A stretch of 64,000 nt of DNA from a phage, in the NCBI GenBank assembly GCA_027337125.1, contig GCA_027337125.1_3057.1; one strand, 5' to 3'. The notes under the pieces were generated by a model, which was not told where the DNA came from, made no database searches, and saw only the letters and a list, made by a program, of their open reading frames with translations. The position numbers and the translations under genes are program-made. Positions 1,202 to 55,304 of this stretch are shown here, one piece after another. Numbering within the stretch: the first letter of the stretch is position 1; each line of letters starts with the position of its first letter.

Positions 1202-1489
1202 ATGAAAACTTTCAAAGAATTTACTTCTACAACTACCCCGGTTTCTACTATTACTGAAGCTACTCTTACTTCTGAAGTTATTAAAGCAAATAAAGGACGA
1301 GAAGGTAAACCAATGATTAGTTTGGTTGATGGCGAAGAAATCAAAGGTACTGTTTACCTAGGTGATGGGTGGTCTGCTAAAAAGGATGGTGCTACAATCA
1401 TTATCTCTCCTGCTGAAGAAACTGCGTTGTTTAAAGCTAAACACATTTCTGCGGCACATCTCAAGATTATTGCTAAAAATCTTTTGTAA
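1202..1489 (+). CDS. internal head protein at the ipI locus, with capsid-targeting N-terminus
   Basis: N-terminus MKTFKEF resembles T4 CTS (MKTYQEF); 95 aa; early promoter upstream; T4 IPI is an anti-restriction protein. Confidence 0.65.
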   Translation: MKTFKEFTSTTTPVSTITEATLTSEVIKANKGREGKPMISLVDGEEIKGTVYLGDGWSAKKDGATIIISPAEETALFKAKHISAAHLKIIAKNLL

Positions 1490-3043: not shown

Positions 3044-3115
3044 GGCCCTGTAGCTGGAAGGTTCAAGCAAGCGACTCATAATCGCCAGATGGTGGTTCAA
3101 TTCCACCCAGGGCCA
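3044..3115 (+). tRNA. tRNA-Ile (anticodon CAT, lysidine-type as in T4)
   Basis: Acceptor GGCCCTG/CAGGGCC, anticodon loop TCATAAT, T-arm GGTTCAATTCC. Confidence 0.8.
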
Positions 3116-3156: not shown

Positions 3157-3822
3157 ATGTTCCATTACATTTATAAAATAACAAATAAAATTAATAATAA
3201 AATCTATATAGGCGCTCATTCTACCGAAAATTTAGATGATGGATATATGGGTTCTGGTAAATTATTAAAAAGAGCCCAAGATAAATATGGTATAGAAAAT
3301 TTTTCTAAAGAAATATTAGAGTTCTTTGACGATAAAACCTCTATGTTTGAGTCAGAAAAGAATATTGTGACTGAAGAGTTTTTAAAGCGCCCTGATGTTT
3401 ATAATTTGAAATTAGGTGGTGAAGGTGGTTGGGACCATTTAAACACTAAAGAATATTTGGATAAAAAGAAAGAAGCTTCCTTAAAAGGAGCTGCCGCTTT
3501 TAAAACCAGATTTGAGAACGACCCAGACCTTAAAGAAAAATATCGTAAAATGGGTTCAGAAAGGTTTAAACAGCTTTGGGATAATCCTAAGTATAGAGAG
3601 AAATTTTTAAATACTAAATCTTTCTTGGGTAAGACCCATACTCCTGAAACTATTAATAAAATGAAAGAATCTCACGCCAGAAATAAACACCAACAAGGTG
3701 AAAAGAATTCCCAATTTGGCATGATGTGGATTCATTCATTAGATGAAAAAGTTTCTAAACGTATTAAGAAAACTGACCCAATTCCAGAAGGATGGTTTAA
3801 AGGTCGAAAAATGAAATTTTAA
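3157..3822 (+). CDS. segB: GIY-YIG homing endonuclease SegB-like, inside tRNA cluster
   Basis: N-terminal GIY-YIG motif (IYKITNKINNKIYIGAH); sits between tRNA subclusters as T4 segB does. Confidence 0.8.
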   Translation: MFHYIYKITNKINNKIYIGAHSTENLDDGYMGSGKLLKRAQDKYGIENFSKEILEFFDDKTSMFESEKNIVTEEFLKRPDVYNLKLGGEGGWDHLNTKEYLDKKKEASLKGAAAFKTRFENDPDLKEKYRKMGSERFKQLWDNPKYREKFLNTKSFLGKTHTPETINKMKESHARNKHQQGEKNSQFGMMWIHSLDEKVSKRIKKTDPIPEGWFKGRKMKF

Positions 3823-3825
3823 TTA

Positions 3826-3902
<77 letters not shown>

Positions 3903-7388: not shown

Positions 7389-8308
<920 letters not shown>

Positions 8309-8310
8309 TA

Positions 8311-8328
8311 AGGCCTATACTTAGGCCT
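8311..8328 (+). terminator. hairpin after internal-protein gene
   Basis: AGGCCT-atactt-AGGCCT palindromic stem followed by ATTT. Confidence 0.35.
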
Positions 8329-8485
8329 ATTTACATTCAAATAACATGGGAACAAGCTGGACCTCATGATTCTGTGAGGGATTCCCGCCAACCTGTAATA
8401 AGGTCGAGCCCAAGTGCGGTAATGGGTAAATACAGAAACGGACAATTCATGCGCCATGGAATGGCCCAAATTTAGAGATAACAAA

Positions 8486-9028
8486 ATGAAAACATTTTTA
8501 ACTGGTCCTTATCTATCCCTGATGAATGCTTTTACACACCATTCTGATGCTAGAGTAGAAGAAATTTGTAATAGTGGATTTTATGTACCTGATTCGCCAC
8601 ATTTATTTAAAGAATACTGCACACTTCGACTAGATGGTGGACGTCAATCCGGTAAATCAACTGCAGTAACTAATTTTGCCGCTAATTGGTTGTATGACGG
8701 TGGAACAGTTATTGTTCTTTCTAATACTTCAGCTTACGCTAAAATTTCTGCGGGCCACATTAAAAAAGAATTTTCACGCTATTCTAATGATGATATTCGA
8801 TTCCGTTTATTTACTGATTCTGTCCGTAGTTTTGTTGGTAATAGAGGTAGCAAGTTCAGAGGTTTATCGCTTTCGCGGATTTTGTATATAATCGATGAGC
8901 CTGTTAAATCTCCTGATATGGATAAAATTTATGATATTCATATTGAAACTGTGCAACACTGCTGCAATAGTAAATGTTGCATTGGTGGTATTACTCGTCC
9001 ACAGTTTTTCGTAATCGGAATGCAATGA
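8486..9028 (+). CDS. small P-loop NTPase (Walker A/B)
   Basis: GGRQSGKST Walker A and ILYIIDE Walker B; start taken at second ATG (MKTFLTG); boundary uncertain. Confidence 0.5.
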   Translation: MKTFLTGPYLSLMNAFTHHSDARVEEICNSGFYVPDSPHLFKEYCTLRLDGGRQSGKSTAVTNFAANWLYDGGTVIVLSNTSAYAKISAGHIKKEFSRYSNDDIRFRLFTDSVRSFVGNRGSKFRGLSLSRILYIIDEPVKSPDMDKIYDIHIETVQHCCNSKCCIGGITRPQFFVIGMQ

Positions 9029-9354
9029 TGACAGACACACAGCTTTTCGAATATCTTTATTTTTCGCCAAAAACTATTAAAAATAAATTGGTGAATCATT
9101 TTGAAATTTTGGCAAATAACAACGTCTTGAGCGAATTTTATCCTAAGCAGTATAAACTACAAAAAGGTGTATTCAAAGGATGTAGAGTTTTGTGTACTGC
9201 TCCTAATGCACGGTTAATGAATAAAATTCCATATTTTACAATGGAATTTATTGATGGACCTTTTAAAGGACTAATTACCCAGAGTTTAATGGCATATGAT
9301 TCTGAGCCATTTTTAATTAAAGAACAATCTTGGATAAATTTATTTTCTAATTGA
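9025..9354 (+). CDS. hypothetical protein
   Basis: In-frame ATG overlapping upstream stop (ATGATGA), 109 aa. Confidence 0.45.
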
Positions 9355-9361
9355 GGTTTAT

Positions 9362-9724
9362 ATGAAAGCATATCAAATTCTTGAAGGCACGCACAAAGGT
9401 ACTATTTATTTTGAAGATGGTATTCAAGCACGAATTATCGTTTCTAAAACCTTTAAAGAGGACTCTTTTGTAGACCCAGAAATTTTCTATGGTTTGCATG
9501 CCCGTGAAATTGAAATTGAGCCACAGCCTACAGTTAAAATTGAAGGTGGTCAGCACCTGAACGTTAACGTTCTGCGTCGTGAAACTCTGGAAGATGCAGT
9601 TAAGCATCCGGAAAAATATCCGCAGCTGACCATCCGTGTCTCCGGTTATGCAGTTCGCTTTAACTCTCTGACTCCGGAACAGCAGCGCGACGTTATCGCT
9701 CGTACCTTTACCGAGAGTTTGTAA
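9362..9724 (+). CDS. autonomous glycyl-radical cofactor GrcA/YfiD-like protein
   Basis: C-terminal 60 aa essentially identical to recalled E. coli GrcA / PflB glycyl-radical domain ([10 protein letters not shown]...[29 protein letters not shown]). Confidence 0.8.
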
Positions 9725-9945
9725 TGGCAAAGATAATTATTGAAGGTTCTAAAGATGTGCTAAATGCTTTCGCCGAATGGTTTAGTAATTCAGGCGAACA
9801 GCAATTTAATGAAGCATGGAACATGGGTGATATTAGTGGAATTTATCCTACGACAGAAATTTCTGTTCAGGGATATGGCATTCATGAACCTATTCGTTTA
9901 GTTGAATATGATTTGGGTACTGGTGAGGAAGTAAAATATGATTGA
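9724..9945 (+). CDS. hypothetical protein
   Basis: 73-aa ORF, TAATG overlap with grcA-like stop. Confidence 0.5.
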   Translation: MAKIIIEGSKDVLNAFAEWFSNSGEQQFNEAWNMGDISGIYPTTEISVQGYGIHEPIRLVEYDLGTGEEVKYD

Positions 9946-10204
9946 AGATATTAAGGGTTATAAGCCACATACTGACGATAAAATCAGTAAAGTGAATGCT
10001 ATTAAAGATGCTGAAGTTCGTTTAGGACTTATCTTTGACGCTTTATATGATGAATTCTGGGAAGCACTAGATAATTGTGAAGACTGTGAATTCGCGAAGA
10101 ATTATGCTGAAAGCCTCGATCAGTTAACTATTGCTAAAACGAAACTCAAAGAAGCCAGTATGTGGGCTTGTCGTGCTGTGTTCCAACCAGAGGAAAAATA
10201 TTAA
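9938..10204 (+). CDS. hypothetical protein
   Basis: 88-aa acidic ORF with ATGA overlap to previous gene. Confidence 0.5.
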
Positions 10205-10482
10205 TGGCTCAATTAAGCGCAGGGTTTGGTTATGAGTATTATACTGCCCCTCGTCGTGTATCTGTTGCTCCTAAGAAAATTCAAAGTCTTGATGACTTCC
10301 AGGAAGTAGTTCGTAAAGCTTTCCATGACTATGCGAGTTATCTTAAAGAAGATTCACAGGACTGTCTCGAAGAAGATGAAATTGCTTACTATGAGCAGCG
10401 TCTTGAACAGCTTAAAAACCTACATGAGGTTCGTGCAGAAGTTTCAAAGTCTATGAATAAATTGATTAGATTTAAAGAATAA
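10204..10482 (+). CDS. hypothetical protein
   Basis: ATG (MAQLSAG) overlapping previous stop preferred over ORF-track GTG. Confidence 0.5.
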
Positions 10483-10484
10483 CT

Positions 10485-10533
10485 GTTTACTTTTCCTCTT
10501 GACTGTGGTATAATTTTTCTATCAGTTAAGAGG
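10485..10533 (+). promoter_or_regulatory. early promoter embedded in inverted repeat whose 3' arm covers the regB Shine-Dalgarno
   Basis: GTTTAC-17 bp-TATAAT; arms CCTCTTGACTG / CAGTTAAGAGG (10 pairs plus one G-T). Confidence 0.6.
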
Positions 10534-10541
10534 AGAATAAC

Positions 10542-11003
10542 ATGACTATCAACACAGAAGTTTTTATCCGTCGAAATAAGCTCCGTCGTCACTTTGAGTC
10601 GGAGTTTCGTCAAATTAACAATGAGATTCGTGAGGCATCAAAAGCAGCAGGGGTCTCATCGTTTCATCTAAAATATTCTCAACATCTTCTTGATCGTGCA
10701 ATTCAACGGGAGATTGATGAGACATATGTTTTTGAATTATTCCATAAAATAAAAGACCATGTTTTAGAAGTTAATGAATTCCTAAGTATGCCTCCGCGTC
10801 CTGACATTAATGAGGATTTTATTGATGGGGTTGAATATCGTCCTGGGCGTTTAGAAATCACCGATGGAAATCTTTGGCTTGGATTTACAGTTTGTAAACC
10901 TAACGAGAAGTTCAAAGACCCGTCACTTCAGTGCAGGATGGCAATTATCAACAGTCGTCGTTTACCGGGAAAGGCTTCTAAAGCAGTAATTAAAACTCAA
11001 TGA
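10542..11003 (+). CDS. regB: RegB sequence-specific endoribonuclease
   Basis: 153 aa, matches recalled T4 RegB (MTINTEVFIRRNKLRRHFESEFRQ...). Confidence 0.85.
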   Translation: MTINTEVFIRRNKLRRHFESEFRQINNEIREASKAAGVSSFHLKYSQHLLDRAIQREIDETYVFELFHKIKDHVLEVNEFLSMPPRPDINEDFIDGVEYRPGRLEITDGNLWLGFTVCKPNEKFKDPSLQCRMAIINSRRLPGKASKAVIKTQ

Positions 11004-18775: not shown

Positions 18776-19491
18776 AAAAATATTTTACTATCTATAAAAC
18801 TGAAATATTAAATTTAAAGACTGGCATTAAGAAATATTATTATGGTCGACATATAACTAATAATATCAATGATTCGTATGTTGGTAGTGGAAATTATATA
18901 GAACGCGTAAAAGTGTCAAATGACCATATATTATCAAAAACTGTTTTAGAAGTTTTTGATAATTATGATAAAATGGTACAATCTGAAATATTATATATCA
19001 TGGCAGGCAAATTAAAATATGGTAAAAACTGTGTTAATCTGTCGTATGGGGGTGAAGGAGGAAAAGTTGCGGATGAAACTAGGATAAAATGTAAAAAGCA
19101 TTCCATAAATTTATGGAAAAATCCTAATCATATACAGCATATGAAGAAAAAGATGAAAGAGGTCACATCTACACCAGAAGCTAAATTAAACACTTCAATA
19201 AAAACTTCACAACGATATAAGGACCCAGTTTTTGTTAGAAAAGTTAGTAATATTATTAAAAAGGCACTAAGCAATCCTACGGTAAAAGAAAAGCATATTA
19301 ATGGAATTAAAGCTGCAAAGCGTTCTCATTTAACTATATGGCAGTATGAAGATGAATTATTCGAGCTTTGGAAAGAAACTAAATATGGATGGAGAAAATT
19401 TACAAAGGAAGCTATAAAACACGGGTATCCAAATGAACCGTATCGTAGTATGGTATCAACTTTTCAGAAAAGACATTTAGAAGAATCGTAA
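18772..19491 (+). CDS. GIY-YIG homing endonuclease (Seg-like)
   Basis: IYK...YYYGRH...YVGSG GIY-YIG motif; NUMOD-like PTVKEKH; ATGA overlap with AAA+ gene. Confidence 0.75.
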   Translation: MKKYFTIYKTEILNLKTGIKKYYYGRHITNNINDSYVGSGNYIERVKVSNDHILSKTVLEVFDNYDKMVQSEILYIMAGKLKYGKNCVNLSYGGEGGKVADETRIKCKKHSINLWKNPNHIQHMKKKMKEVTSTPEAKLNTSIKTSQRYKDPVFVRKVSNIIKKALSNPTVKEKHINGIKAAKRSHLTIWQYEDELFELWKETKYGWRKFTKEAIKHGYPNEPYRSMVSTFQKRHLEES

Positions 19492-34250: not shown

Positions 34251-35453
34251 ATGAAAGTATGTATTTTTATGGCTCGGGGTCTTGAAGGTTGCGGTGTAAC
34301 TAAATTTTCTCTCGAGCAACGTGATTGGTTTATTAAAAATGGTCATGAAGTAACTTTGGTTTATGCTAAAGATAAATCATTTACTCGTAACTGTGCGCAT
34401 GATTATAAATCATTTTCAATTCCGGTTTTATTGGCAAAAGAATACGATAAAACACTTAAGCTGGTAAATGATTGTGATATTCTAATTATCAATTCAGTTC
34501 CTGCTACTTCAGTCGAAGAAGACACTATTAATAACTATAAAAAAATTATTGATAACATTAAACCTTCTGTTCGTGTTGTAGTTTATCAACATGACCATTC
34601 TTCTCTTTCTTTACGCCGAAATTTGGGATTAGAAGAAACTGTTCGTCGAGCTGATGTTATTTTTAGTCATTCTGATAATGGTGACTTTAATAAAGTTTTG
34701 ATGAAAGAATGGTATCCAGAAACAGTTTCTTTGTTTGATGATATTGAAGAAGCACCGACCGTATATAACTTTCAGCCTCCTATGGATATTGCGAAGGTTC
34801 GATCAACTTACTGGAAAGATGTTTCTGAAATTAACATGAATATCAACCGTTGGATTGGTCGTACAACTACGTGGAAAGGTTTTTATCAGATGTTTGATTT
34901 TCACGAAAAACATCTTAAACCTGCAGGACTAAGTACTATTATGGAAGGTCTGGAACGTTCTCCGGCATTCATTCCTATTAAAGAAAAAGGAATTCCATAC
35001 GAGTATTATCGTCTTCATCAAGTAGACCAAATTAAAATTGCTCCTAATTTGCCAACGCAAATTCTTGACCGTTATGTAAATAGCGAAATGCTTGAACGCA
35101 TGAGTAAATCCGGATTTGGTTATCAGCTGAGTAAATTGGACAAAAAATATCTACAACGTTCTTTAGAATATACTCATCTCGAGCTTGGTGCGTGCGGAAC
35201 AATTCCGGTATTTTGGAAATCTACTGGCGAAAATTTAAAATTCCGTGTTGATAATACTCCGTTAATTTCGCATGATAGCGGTATCGTTTGGTTTGATGAA
35301 AATGACATGGAATCAACATTTGAGCGTATTAAAGAACTGTCATCTGACCGAGCTCTTTATGACCGTGAACGTGAAAAAGCTTATGAATTTTTGTATCAGC
35401 ACCAAGATTCAAGCTTCTGCTTTAAAGAACAGTTTGACATTATTACAAAATAA
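34251..35453 (+). CDS. agt: DNA alpha-glucosyltransferase
   Basis: 400 aa, closely matches recalled T4 a-gt (MxxCIFMARGLEGCGVTKFSLEQRDWFIKNGHEV...). Confidence 0.9.
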   Translation: MKVCIFMARGLEGCGVTKFSLEQRDWFIKNGHEVTLVYAKDKSFTRNCAHDYKSFSIPVLLAKEYDKTLKLVNDCDILIINSVPATSVEEDTINNYKKIIDNIKPSVRVVVYQHDHSSLSLRRNLGLEETVRRADVIFSHSDNGDFNKVLMKEWYPETVSLFDDIEEAPTVYNFQPPMDIAKVRSTYWKDVSEINMNINRWIGRTTTWKGFYQMFDFHEKHLKPAGLSTIMEGLERSPAFIPIKEKGIPYEYYRLHQVDQIKIAPNLPTQILDRYVNSEMLERMSKSGFGYQLSKLDKKYLQRSLEYTHLELGACGTIPVFWKSTGENLKFRVDNTPLISHDSGIVWFDENDMESTFERIKELSSDRALYDREREKAYEFLYQHQDSSFCFKEQFDIITK

Positions 35454-45699: not shown

Positions 45700-45951
45700 A
45701 TGGAAACTTTAGTAGCAGGTTCAATTTTTATGGTTTTAGTTTCAGGTGTGTTGGCTATTATTATATACATGCTTCCTTGGTTCATTGCCTTGATGCGTGG
45801 GTCAAAATCGACAGTAGGAATCTTTTTTACATCTTTACTGTTTAACTGGTCAATCATTGGTTGGTTTATTACATTTATTTGGTCAATTGCGGGTGAAACT
45901 AAAAAGTCAACACAGCCAAATCAAGTAATTATCATCAGAGAGAAGGAATGA
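45700..45951 (+). CDS. imm: superinfection immunity protein Imm (membrane)
   Basis: 83 aa, two TM helices; matches recalled T4 Imm and its position between 43 and 42. Confidence 0.75.
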   Translation: METLVAGSIFMVLVSGVLAIIIYMLPWFIALMRGSKSTVGIFFTSLLFNWSIIGWFITFIWSIAGETKKSTQPNQVIIIREKE

Positions 45952-46097
45952 AAAGCAAAATTTTAGCAGTATTGCTTTTAATCTTGATGATTATAATAAG
46001 TATATACTATAGTGTAACGGTTCCTCTTATGATTCCAACTATTATTTTAGGTTGGGGTTTATTACTGTTACAAGTTAAATATGAATGTATCAATTGA
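45948..46097 (+). CDS. small hydrophobic peptide (49 aa)
   Basis: ATG overlapping imm stop (ATGA); two hydrophobic segments. Confidence 0.35.
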   Translation: MKSKILAVLLLILMIIISIYYSVTVPLMIPTIILGWGLLLLQVKYECIN

Positions 46098-46104
46098 GGT
46101 TTAA

Positions 46105-46845
46105 ATGATTAATGATTCTTTGACAGTTGAAGAAATCCGTCTTCATTTGGGAATTGCATTAAAGGAAAAAGATTTCGTAATTGATAAAACTGGTGTTAAA
46201 ACTATTGAAATTATTGGCGCATCATTTGTAGCAGATGAACCGTTTATTTTTGGCGCTCTTAATGATGAATACATTCAGCGTGAACTTGAATGGTACAAGT
46301 CTCAAAGTCTGTTTGTTAAAGATATTCCAGGCGAAACGCCAAAGATTTGGCAACAGGTAGCATCTTCTAAAGGTGAAATTAACTCGAATTATGGTTGGGC
46401 TATCTGGTCAGAAGATAACTATGCCCAGTATGATATGTGTTTAGCTGAACTTGGTCAAAATCCTGATTCTCGCCGCGGTATCATGATTTATACTCGTCCA
46501 TCCATGCAGTTTGACTACAACAAAGATGGTATGTCAGATTTCATGTGTACGAATACAGTACAGTACCTGATTCGTGATAAGAAAGTCAATGCAGTAGTAA
46601 GCATGCGTTCAAATGACGTGGTCTTTGGATTCCGTAATGATTATGCATGGCAAAAATACGTACTAGATAAATTAGTATCTGATTTGAATGCAGGTGATTC
46701 AACTCGTCAGTATAAAGCAGGTTCCATTATATGGAATGTTGGAAGCCTTCATGTGTATTCTCGTCATTTTTATTTGGTTGACCATTGGTGGAAAACTGGC
46801 GAAACTCATATTGCGAAAAAAGATTATAACGGTGAGTGGAAATGA
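46105..46845 (+). CDS. 42: dCMP hydroxymethylase gp42
   Basis: 246 aa, thymidylate-synthase-like fold; matches recalled T4 gp42. Confidence 0.95.
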   Translation: MINDSLTVEEIRLHLGIALKEKDFVIDKTGVKTIEIIGASFVADEPFIFGALNDEYIQRELEWYKSQSLFVKDIPGETPKIWQQVASSKGEINSNYGWAIWSEDNYAQYDMCLAELGQNPDSRRGIMIYTRPSMQFDYNKDGMSDFMCTNTVQYLIRDKKVNAVVSMRSNDVVFGFRNDYAWQKYVLDKLVSDLNAGDSTRQYKAGSIIWNVGSLHVYSRHFYLVDHWWKTGETHIAKKDYNGEWK

Positions 46846-47684
46846 TTCAATTCGTAATTCCAAGCTATCAACGTGTAGGGGCAGTTTCTGCCCTTGATAT
46901 GTTTCCGACTGATTATGAACCTCATATTGTAGTACGTAAACACGAAGAAAAAGCTTATTATGACGCTTATGGGTCTAGAGCTAAAATTATAACTATTCCT
47001 GATGATGTTAATGGAATTGCTGGAACTCGTAAAGCAATTACTGATATGTATGCAGGTCAACGAATCTGGATGATTGACGATGATACTACGATTCGTATGA
47101 GTTCAATACGAAAGAGAGACGATAAACGGCGCGTAGATAAAATTAATCAATTAACTCGTGAACAGTTCTATGAATTGATTCAATACGTTGAAGATGCCAT
47201 GGATTGCGGGTATTATCATGGCCATGCTCGTCTACCAATTTTTAAAATTACTTCATCTTGGGGTAATTATCGTGAAAACTCATATGGATTCACGAATACG
47301 TGGTATGACCTCGGAAAACTTACGACAGAACAAATTGGGTATGGAAAAATTGATTTATGCGAAGATATGTATGCATTTCTCAATTTAATTAATCAAGGTT
47401 ATCCGCATTTGGCCTTGTTCAAATATCTAGTTGTATCTGGAAAATCACACGCTCCCGGTGGGTGTAGTTCAATTCGTAGTAATTCTAAACATAATAGAGC
47501 GCTTGAGCAAATCAATAGAGAGTTTCCAGAGCAAGCTCGTTGGAAAACTTCTAATATTGAAAAACGAAAATCGTTGGGTGAAGAAGATGAACCATTAAAG
47601 GTTCTTCGCATGTGTGTTTCGCGTAAAGAAAAATCAGAAGCATTTCATAAGTTTAATGCTATTCATCCAATAGCAGTTGATTAA
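46842..47684 (+). CDS. putative HMC-DNA glycosyltransferase at the beta-gt locus (beta-alpha-gt-like, unverified)
   Basis: ORF between 42 and uvsX where T4 carries beta-gt, but sequence unlike recalled T4 beta-gt; T2/T6 carry a different transferase here. Confidence 0.45.
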   Translation: MIQFVIPSYQRVGAVSALDMFPTDYEPHIVVRKHEEKAYYDAYGSRAKIITIPDDVNGIAGTRKAITDMYAGQRIWMIDDDTTIRMSSIRKRDDKRRVDKINQLTREQFYELIQYVEDAMDCGYYHGHARLPIFKITSSWGNYRENSYGFTNTWYDLGKLTTEQIGYGKIDLCEDMYAFLNLINQGYPHLALFKYLVVSGKSHAPGGCSSIRSNSKHNRALEQINREFPEQARWKTSNIEKRKSLGEEDEPLKVLRMCVSRKEKSEAFHKFNAIHPIAVD

Positions 47685-47761
47685 TGCCTAAATTTATTGT
47701 GTTATAATTACTCTATCTTTAACCAGTGAGGAAAATATAATGATGCCTATGGAAAAAATGA

Positions 47762-48943
47762 ATGTCTATTGCAGATTTAAAATCCCGTTTGATTAAAGCT
47801 TCCACTTCTAAAATGACTGCTGAACTGACTACATCTAAATTCTTTAATGAAAAGGATGTAATTCGTACAAAAATCCCAATGCTTAATATTGCTATTTCTG
47901 GTGCGATTGATGGCGGTATGCAGTCTGGTTTAACTATTTTCGCAGGGCCTTCTAAACACTTTAAATCAAATATGTCTTTGACTATGGTTGCGGCATATTT
48001 GAACAAATATCCTGATGCAGTTTGTCTATTCTATGATAGCGAATTTGGTATTACTCCAGCTTATTTGCGATCCATGGGAGTTGACCCGGAACGAGTAATT
48101 CATACGCCAATCCAGTCAGTTGAACAGCTAAAAATTGATATGGTGAATCAGCTTGAAGCTATTGAGCGCGGTGAAAAGGTTATTGTATTCATCGACTCAA
48201 TCGGTAATATGGCTTCTAAGAAAGAAACGGAAGATGCCCTGAATGAAAAATCTGTGGCAGATATGACTCGTGCTAAATCACTGAAGTCATTATTCCGTAT
48301 TGTTACTCCTTACTTTAGCATTAAAAATATTCCGTGTGTTGCGGTTAACCATACAATTGAAACAATTGAAATGTTTAGTAAAACCGTGATGACAGGTGGT
48401 ACAGGCGTAATGTATTCGGCTGATACCGTATTCATTATCGGTAAACGTCAGATTAAAGATGGTTCTGATCTTCAGGGGTATCAATTTGTTCTAAATGTAG
48501 AAAAATCTCGTACTGTTAAAGAAAAAAGTAAATTCTTTATTGATGTTAAATTTGACGGTGGTATCGATCCTTATTCTGGATTGTTAGATATGGCTCTAGA
48601 ATTAGGATTTGTAGTAAAACCTAAAAATGGCTGGTATGCTCGTGAATTTCTTGACGAAGAAACCGGCGAGATGATTCGCGAAGAAAAATCTTGGCGTGCA
48701 AAAGATACCAACTGCACTACATTCTGGGGTCCTTTATTTAAGCATCAACCATTCCGAGATGCTATTAAACGTGCTTATCAGTTAGGTGCTATTGATAGTA
48801 ATGAAATTGTTGAAGCTGAAGTTGATGAATTGATTAACTCAAAGGTTGAAAAATTTAAATCTCCAGAAAGTAAAAGTAAATCAGCTGCTGATTTAGAAAC
48901 TGACCTCGAGCAGTTAAGTGATATGGAAGAATTTAATGAGTAA
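47762..48943 (+). CDS. uvsX: recombinase UvsX (RecA-like)
   Basis: 393 aa, Walker A GPSKHFKS; matches recalled T4 UvsX. Confidence 0.95.
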   Translation: MSIADLKSRLIKASTSKMTAELTTSKFFNEKDVIRTKIPMLNIAISGAIDGGMQSGLTIFAGPSKHFKSNMSLTMVAAYLNKYPDAVCLFYDSEFGITPAYLRSMGVDPERVIHTPIQSVEQLKIDMVNQLEAIERGEKVIVFIDSIGNMASKKETEDALNEKSVADMTRAKSLKSLFRIVTPYFSIKNIPCVAVNHTIETIEMFSKTVMTGGTGVMYSADTVFIIGKRQIKDGSDLQGYQFVLNVEKSRTVKEKSKFFIDVKFDGGIDPYSGLLDMALELGFVVKPKNGWYAREFLDEETGEMIREEKSWRAKDTNCTTFWGPLFKHQPFRDAIKRAYQLGAIDSNEIVEAEVDELINSKVEKFKSPESKSKSAADLETDLEQLSDMEEFNE

Positions 48944-54785: not shown

Positions 54786-55304
54786 ATGGCATACTTTAAT
54801 GAATGTTCACAACTGATTGAAGGCGCTGATAAAGCTCAAAATGAATACTGGGATATTCTCGGTGATGAAAAAGACCCGCTGCAGGTTATGCTTGATATGC
54901 AGAAATCTTTACAGGTTCGTTTAGCTAAAGATAAACCTGAATATAACCGTCATCCTGATGATTTGGCTACTGCAGGTGAAGTTGTTGATTGGCTACGTAA
55001 TCAGAAAGATTATATTGACGATGAATTCCGCGAACTTCTGACTTCTCTTGGCGGTATGAGCAATGGTGAAAAAGATGCATCTGCTGTATGGAAGCCTTGG
55101 AAAGCTCAACATGGTGAACGCCGTGAAACTCTAATTACTGATTTGTCTCCACAAGACCAGTTGGAAATTAAATTCGAAATGATTGATATTCTTCATTTCG
55201 TTCTGAACATGTTCCAAGGTCTCGGCCTTACAGCTGAAGAAATCTTTAAACTTTATTATCTGAAAAATGCTGAAAACTTCGCGCGTCAAGACCGAGGTTA
55301 TTAA
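54786..55304 (+). CDS. 56: dCTPase/dUTPase gp56
   Basis: 172 aa from MAYFNEC; closely resembles recalled T4 gp56. Confidence 0.9.
   Translation: MAYFNECSQLIEGADKAQNEYWDILGDEKDPLQVMLDMQKSLQVRLAKDKPEYNRHPDDLATAGEVVDWLRNQKDYIDDEFRELLTSLGGMSNGEKDASAVWKPWKAQHGERRETLITDLSPQDQLEIKFEMIDILHFVLNMFQGLGLTAEEIFKLYYLKNAENFARQDRGY

Follow-up and report, generated by a model that had tools for sequence, protein, structure and literature searches.

A T-even-like phage genome carries, between gene 42 and uvsX, an open reading frame that very probably encodes a T2/T6-type β-glucosyl-HMC-α-glucosyltransferase

Which enzyme is encoded between gene 42 and uvsX in this phage, and what does it imply for the sugar carried by the phage DNA? 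In T4, this interval holds b-gt, the gene for β-glucosyltransferase, together with the homing endonuclease gene segA. In the DNA analyzed here (the window, a single stretch of 64,000 nucleotides), it holds a 280-codon open reading frame (ORF). A sequence-only reading had described this ORF as unlike T4 β-gt and, together with an α-gt gene further upstream, as fitting T2/T6-type modification, in which 5-hydroxymethylcytosine (hmC) carries gentiobiosyl groups, rather than the T4 pattern. The finding is correct and already known: the arrangement, the function and the relevance to defence have all been published. The features on which our analysis draws are collected in Table 1.

Table 1. Positions in the window of the βα-gt gene, its motifs and the genes associated with it
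Feature	Position	Strand	Evidence or remark
ipI, internal protein I	1202..1486	+	tblastn, 99% over all 95 residues of T4 IPI
α-gt, DNA α-glucosyltransferase, makes the α-glucosyl-hmC acceptor	34251..35453	+	PF11440 at 2.4e-236
Gene 42, dCMP hydroxymethylase, source of hm-dCMP	46105..46845	+	96% identity with T4 gp42; PF00303
βα-gt (ggt, ba-gt, TAGT), very probable β-glucosyl-HMC-α-glucosyltransferase, 280 aa	46842..47684	+	stop TAA 47682-47684
R11 (CGT), N-terminal IPSYxR motif	46872..46874	+	invariant in 50/50 family members; His only in T2
D79-D80-D81 (GAC GAT GAT), DxD-type motif, presumed metal and UDP-sugar site	47076..47084	+	invariant in 50/50 family members
D175, EDxY motif at helix start, candidate catalytic base	47364..47366	+	D in 44/50 family members
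Last 25-nt region of βα-gt including the stop; relic copy in T4	47662..47686	+	blastn, 24/25 identical, E 5e-6
uvsX recombinase, downstream flank	47762..48943	+	91% identity with T4 UvsX
Gene 56, dCTPase/dUTPase, excludes dCTP, whereby C is replaced by hmC	54786..55301	+	tblastn with T4 gp56, 74% over residues 1-171 of 171

In the ORF listing the open frame spans positions 46836 to 47684 on the plus strand, starting from a GTG. The GTG was ruled out as the start of βα-gt since the homologs all begin with MIQF; translation from the ATG at 46842 yields an intact protein of 280 residues that opens with MIQFVIPSY, the N-terminus common to all homologs, so that the interval given by the sequence-only reading is exact. 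Both flanking products closely match their T4 counterparts (gp42 and UvsX, Table 1), which bears out its placement of the ORF as well. The ATG of βα-gt shares the tetranucleotide ATGA with the TGA stop of gene 42, and a spacer of 77 nt separates βα-gt from uvsX. By our own arithmetic, 280 codons would remain free of stops by chance with P of about 2e-9 (about 36% GC, stop probability about 0.07 per codon), a value that rises to about 2e-4 when every start position on either strand is counted, and the frame is therefore not a chance one; the protein is moreover conserved, with tblastn matches in 689 phage records. GC content across the ORF is 0.36-0.37, the same as in the flanks, and composition thus gives no hint that the gene was acquired recently from elsewhere. 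A scan of positions 45900-48000 for sigma-70 promoters and terminators was uninformative: it returned 15 promoter-like sites where 10.1 ± 3.4 would be expected.

The product of this ORF does not resemble T4 β-gt, as had been claimed from the sequence. BLASTP finds no similarity between the two proteins (best E 3.9), and PF09198, the Pfam family of T4 β-gt, does not match the ORF in a search in which T4 β-gt itself scores 9.4e-98. Nor does tblastn detect a T4 β-gt homolog anywhere in the 64-kb window (best E 2.9), which covers part of a genome of about 168 kb. The modelled fold of the ORF product, described below, is a single GT-A domain and not the two-domain GT-B architecture of T4 β-gt (PMC13216743). 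A diverged β-gt was accordingly rejected, similarity being absent and the fold being different. What the two enzymes have in common is their slot downstream of gene 42 and, for βα-gt as for β-gt, the use of UDP-glucose to link glucose β-glycosidically to the hmC DNA of the phage after α-gt has acted. They differ in that β-gt glucosylates bare hmC, whereas an enzyme of the type in the window instead extends α-glucosyl-hmC.

Comparison with the T2 and T6 enzymes, which the sequence-only reading had suggested as a check, gives a clear match. The window protein is 97% identical to T2 βα-gt over 280 aa (nine substitutions) and 96% identical to the annotated T6 coding sequence over 261 aa (about 10 substitutions versus T6), and it matches PHROG 842, 'beta-glucosyl-HMC-alpha-glucosyltransferase', at 1.5e-87. 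In Pfam, it scores 39.4 bits against PF20691 (TAGT, TET-associated glycosyltransferase), for which the gathering cutoff is 27.5, with residues 3-207 aligned over profile positions 2-205 of 205; no other Pfam family, PF00535 (Glycos_transf_2) included, matches at E ≤1. Beginning at the end of gene 42 and reaching into uvsX, the DNA of the window, T2 and T6 is collinear; the three share an identical 77-nt spacer upstream of uvsX, and the order 42, βα-gt, uvsX is common to the window, T2, T6, EL, NR1 and HP3. Like the window protein, the T2 and T6 enzymes (UniProt Q06717 and Q06718 as cited in PMC6024577) are 280 aa long, and they share with it the ATGA overlap with gene 42, the locus and the α-gt partner. 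With the TAGT family at large the window protein shares R11, R63 and the DDD triplet. It stands apart from the context in which that family was named in two respects: there hmC is produced on DNA by a TET/JBP dioxygenase, whereas here it comes from the nucleotide-level hydroxymethylase gp42, and the window enzyme would act on a sugar that the base already carries. As far as sequence can tell, the ORF thus displays every defining feature of both Pfam TAGT and the T2/T6 βα-gt family. We conclude that it very probably encodes a T2/T6-type β-glucosyl-HMC-α-glucosyltransferase, a GT-A enzyme of the TAGT family that would make gentiobiosyl-hmC.

A sequence search of the PDB revealed no solved structure of the βα-gt family; phmmer gave no meaningful match, and the best hit of a profile search, 9jma, stayed below threshold (E 0.078). 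Fifty diverse family members, gathered in two homolog searches of which the first yielded 11 proteins, were aligned, and this alignment underlies both the AlphaFold model and the conservation counts given here. It replaced a single-sequence AlphaFold run that had proved unusable (pLDDT 38) and resulted in a model of the window protein with a pLDDT of 92.2 and a pTM of 0.90. Foldseek searches of the PDB with this model return WrtF, TarS, K4CP, TarP and RmlT with probability 1.00 and E of about 1e-6. Model and Foldseek matches together identify a GT-A glycosyltransferase fold, and the proposal that the ORF encodes a glycosyltransferase has thereby passed the fold prediction suggested for it. R11, R63 and D79-D80-D81 do not vary across the 50 family members, and the window protein keeps every one of them. 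In the model, the DDD triplet directly follows the β-strand formed by residues 74-78, the canonical DxD position after the fourth β-strand, and in the alignment with 9jma (AvpGT), a GT-A glucosyltransferase, it is paired with DDD. D175 is a candidate catalytic base, as it lies at a helix start where GT2 enzymes have their ED base; its alignment with the ED motif of 9jma falls within a non-significant stretch. The single Rossmann-like GT-A domain and the DxD after β4 are found in GT2-like GT-A enzymes such as TarS and TarP of S. aureus, the β-1,3-glucosyltransferase AvpGT, WrtF and K4CP of E. coli, and an acidic residue opening the next helix may be a further feature in common. The window enzyme is thus expected to work in a GT2-like manner but is not a member of PF00535 at the level of sequence. 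From the GT-A/DxD architecture and from these fold neighbors, at 8-16% identity, an inverting, metal-dependent mechanism is predicted.

The window also encodes the partners that such an enzyme would need. The gene at 34251, put forward earlier as a T4-like α-gt, is indeed an α-gt, but its allele class is that of T2: the product is 99.0% identical to that of T2 and 99.2% to that of NR1, versus 91% to those of T4 and T6. Two classes of α-gt alleles, about 91% identical, can be distinguished, one comprising T4, T6 and EL and the other T2, NR1 and the window. Besides genes 42 and 56 (Table 1), the C-terminus of gp1 dNMP kinase is encoded in the window as well. In T-even phages, hmC is incorporated at replication and is then glucosylated by α-gt, after which βα-gt adds a β-1,6-linked glucose (PMC13216743, PMC6024577, PMC11078745); T6 lacking ba-gt/g-gt carries only α-glucosyl-hmC in its DNA (PMC11078745; bioRxiv 10.64898/2026.02.25.707755). 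In the pathway we propose for the present phage, gp42 and gp56 would ensure that DNA is built with 5-hydroxymethylcytosine, and α-gt, acting at the replication fork or directly behind it, would transfer glucose from UDP-glucose onto hmC through an α linkage. βα-gt would then place a second glucose from UDP-α-glucose, β-1,6, onto the first in a metal-dependent, inverting reaction via the DDD triplet to give gentiobiosyl-hmC. The ATGA overlap suggests that βα-gt is translationally coupled to gene 42 and probably made early, alongside the hydroxymethylase. The identity of the ORF, the presence of an α-gt to supply the acceptor and the absence of a β-gt homolog from the window all support the T2/T6-type modification that the sequence-only reading had favored.

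This arrangement is far from rare. Megablast with a 2-kb segment comprising gene 42, the ORF and the start of uvsX matched 597 phage records, 475 of them with a query coverage of 80% or more, and the gene is annotated as β-glucosyl-HMC-α-glucosyltransferase in many of the matching records. T4 β-gt, by comparison, is found by tblastn in 126 records, 29 of them at identities of at least 90%. In published surveys, a-gt and ba-gt occur together in 12 of 14 sequenced T4-like 'RB' phages (PMC6024577), α-GT and β-GT in 6 of 753 phage genomes (PMC13216743). The combination of α-gt and βα-gt is the usual state of Tequatrovirus, with hundreds of sequenced genomes, and the α-gt and β-gt pair of T4 is the rare exception. 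T4 itself carries, immediately upstream of segA, a relic of the 3′ end of βα-gt with the stop codon included (Table 1), and homology between T4 and the window breaks off within gene 42, 18 nt short of its end, and sets in again 12 nt inside uvsX. The relic and these breakpoints suggest that the b-gt and segA cassette of T4 replaced an ancestral βα-gt.

What, then, is to be expected of the virion DNA? LC-MS analyses of ten natural Tequatrovirus isolates found 40-67% gentiobiosyl-hmC in all ten (PMC13390438): in EL, BGP and Geo, hmC, α-glucosyl-hmC and α-gentiobiosyl-hmC occur at about 1:2:2, and in the seven others, NR1 among them, about one-third is hmC and two-thirds is gentiobiosylated, with monoglucosyl-hmC in trace amounts only. 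The window protein differs from EL βα-gt at two residues (K33E and I50V) and from NR1 βα-gt at eight, and because phages with such near-identical alleles contain 40-67% gentiobiosyl-hmC, we expect this modification here too. The virion DNA is predicted to contain gentiobiosyl-hmC as a major form (about 40-70%), about one-quarter to one-third bare hmC and no β-glucosyl-hmC, with proportions that we infer from these comparisons. Presence of the gene does not by itself determine the share of gentiobiosyl-hmC, which is about 5% in T2 and about 72% in T6 (bioRxiv 10.64898/2026.02.25.707755): T2 has an intact 280-aa gene, and an intact ORF is thus no guarantee of high activity.

The T2 case provides an argument for an alternative in which the ORF in the window is intact but hypomorphic or inactive, as that of T2 appears to be, so that the DNA is essentially α-monoglucosylated. 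The window α-gt moreover belongs to the T2 allele class. We nevertheless regard this alternative as improbable, as the window protein retains R11 and all other invariant residues and the ten natural isolates cited above are without exception rich in gentiobiosyl-hmC. NR1 also argues against it, for it has the same class of α-gt and a βα-gt that equals that of T2 except at residues 11, 24 and 251, yet is about two-thirds gentiobiosylated. Still less probable is a TAGT transferase with another sugar, linkage or acceptor, for instance bare hmC or β-glucosyl-hmC. TAGT homologs are also found next to homologs of β-gt, or where neither α-gt nor β-gt is present (PMC13216743), and this variation in gene context implies that specificity varies across the family; variants of this kind are, however, at most 65% identical, whereas the window protein is 96-99% identical to alleles of phages that contain α-gentiobiosyl-hmC, and the window is devoid of a β-gt homolog. 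Finally, as the window shows 64 kb of the genome, a T4-type β-gt encoded outside it could in principle produce a mixed T4 and T6 pattern. We consider this the least probable of all, and very nearly negligible: in T4 and a few close relatives β-gt sits at exactly the gene 42 locus, the close homologs of β-gt counted above (29 records) compare with several hundred records for βα-gt, and the published count of genomes with both α-gt and β-gt is low. The reading of the ORF as a T2/T6-type βα-gt is therefore the one we retain.

In the course of these comparisons, the reference alleles of T2 and T6 themselves were found to be atypical. In T2 records AP018813 and MH751506 alike, R11H replaces the invariant arginine that the window allele keeps, and a 38-mer specific to T2 is confined to seven T2 records and SV76, whose genome is as long as that of T2. 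Because the NR1 and T2 enzymes differ only at the three residues named above, R11H or, less likely, P251S would be a concrete candidate cause, as a hypothesis, for the low gentiobiosyl content of T2. That the window allele is wild type and fully active, and that the gap between T2 and T6 in gentiobiosyl-hmC is an allele effect due to R11H in T2, is a tentative proposition, to which we would give slightly less than an even chance. In T6 record MH550421, codon 10 is changed from CAG to TAG (Q10amber) and the coding sequence is annotated from Met20; in T6 record AP018814 and RefSeq NC_054907, one GAT of GATGATGAT is missing, by which DDD becomes DD. The window allele has neither lesion, its triplet reading GAC GAT GAT. 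Both lesions in the T6 reference genomes are probably null. The same loss of one Asp is the sole protein change in HP3.2 (source given as 'in vitro directed evolution'), whose parent HP3 has DDD, and this renewed occurrence in a directed-evolution derivative suggests that the second glucosylation may be recurrently lost or attenuated in laboratory propagation. In a preprint on phage contingency loci, the passages that matched a search for the GAT-repeat deletion concern agt. The lesions could matter to those who use T2 and T6 as modification standards.

For the window itself, the significance of these findings lies in annotation only: the phage is to be annotated as a T2/T6-type modifier, with hmC, α-glucosyl-hmC and gentiobiosyl-hmC and without β-glucosyl-hmC. 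That this class bears on sensitivity to modification-dependent defence, as the sequence-only reading had held, is documented in papers on Brig1, BapA and GmrSD, and its relevance to BrxU has likewise been published. In vitro, T6 DNA with gentiobiosyl-hmC withstands Brig1; the Δba-gt mutant of T6 shows greater sensitivity, its DNA becoming a Brig1 substrate in vitro (PMC11078745). BapA is unable to deglucosylate gentiobiosyl-hmC DNA, and T6 without g-gt is a BapA substrate (bioRxiv 10.64898/2026.02.25.707755). Gentiobiosyl-hmC DNA is still a target of GmrSD, which cuts glucosylated hmC DNA and of which processed IPI is a known inhibitor (PMC13216743). By published work, membership in the T2/T6-type class predicts that the packaged DNA would be shielded from BapA deglucosylation and, in vitro, from the Brig1 glycosylase, and that the phage would remain sensitive to GmrSD-, BrxU- and TgvAB-type enzymes, a sensitivity that the ipI gene in the window may partly offset.

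α-gt, the gene of the first-step enzyme, occurs as two allele classes with about 91% identity between them, one found in T4, T6 and isolate EL and the other in T2, isolate NR1 and the window. The sequence-only reading had named the window gene a T4-like α-gt; the gene is indeed present, but is more precisely called a T2-type α-gt, its identity to that of T2 being 99.0%. The βα-gt gene of T2, whose product adds the second glucose to yield gentiobiosyl-hmC, carries an R11H substitution at an arginine kept in the aligned homologues (50/50), and a 38-mer specific to this allele is present only in seven T2 records and in SV76. T2 DNA contains 5% gentiobiosyl-hmC, and NR1 DNA about two-thirds (PMC13390438). 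On comparison of the alleles, R11H is a candidate cause of the low T2 level, because NR1, with an α-gt of the same class, differs from T2 in βα-gt only at residues 11, 24 and 251.

Both public T6 genome records contain βα-gt lesions that are probably null. In MH550421 codon 10 is an amber, and in AP018814 and NC_054907 GATGATGAT is shortened to GATGAT, leaving one Asp codon fewer in the invariant DDD motif (D79-D80-D81). The same deletion (ΔAsp) is the sole βα-gt change in HP3.2, a directed-evolution phage, with respect to HP3, and its occurrence in both T6 and HP3.2 points either to sequencing artefacts or to a triplet repeat that repeatedly loses a unit when these phages are propagated in the laboratory.

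Coordinates of βα-gt alleles and other features (L numbers denote compared sequences)
Feature	Location	Remark
βα-gt, T2	L003:4283-5125; L007:4286-5128	residue 11 codon equivalent to window 46872-46874
βα-gt, T6 MH550421	L002:4138-4980	amber allele
βα-gt, T6 AP018814	L005:4135-4974	one Asp codon of DDD gone
βα-gt, HP3.2	L015:381-1220	ΔAsp
βα-gt, HP3	L016:843-1685	reference for HP3.2
α-gt	window 34251-35453	
b-gt; TAGT	ON585039: 24720-25793; 25799-26620	
βα-gt 3′ end, and its relic in T4	window 47662-47686; T4 L001:5239-5263	T4 relic between b-gt and segA
Stem-loop	window 46876-46896	inside βα-gt codons 12-19
ipI	window 1202-1486	GmrSD inhibitor precursor; 99% identity to T4
GIY-YIG (seg-like) match	window 3160-3429	inside tRNA cluster
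GIY-YIG (seg-like) match, second of two	window 18832-19467	

Within βα-gt, a GC-rich 9-bp stem-loop (TAGGGGCAGTTTCTGCCCTTG, then a T-rich tail) is terminator-like by scan and is kept in T2 and T6. The 77-nt spacer upstream of uvsX (window 47685-47761) is 100% identical among the window, T2 and T6, and holds TGCCTAAA followed about 11 nt on by TATAAT, which resembles a T4 MotA-dependent middle promoter (putative).

The gp56 dCTPase (window 54786-55301) has just 74% identity to that of T4, and since its neighbours dam, gp61 and soc reach 98%, 99% and 95%, respectively, it reads as a local mosaic patch; segF, lying between 56 and soc in T4, has no counterpart at that place in the window. T4 ipII and denV gave no tblastn match in the window and ipIII matched over its C-terminal 115 residues only (88%), so that from e to regB (window 7425-11000), the internal-protein/denV region, the window differs from T4. 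One GIY-YIG homing-endonuclease match falls between tRNAs at 3044-3115 and 3826-3902, the same position as T4 segB.

In T4-like phages of Enterobacter, Citrobacter, Salmonella and Klebsiella, a TAGT (the βα-gt family) of about 64% identity directly adjoins a β-gt homologue of about 50% identity (ON585039, KJ000058, NC_028857 and others). TAGT accompanies either first-step enzyme. No segA lies between βα-gt and uvsX in the window. T4 retains the βα-gt 3′ end, stop codon included, as a 24/25-nt relic just upstream of segA (blastn E 5e-6), and T4/window homology ends at window 46827 and restarts at 47774. Relic and homology break together suggest that an ancestral βα-gt in T4 was displaced by a b-gt plus segA cassette.
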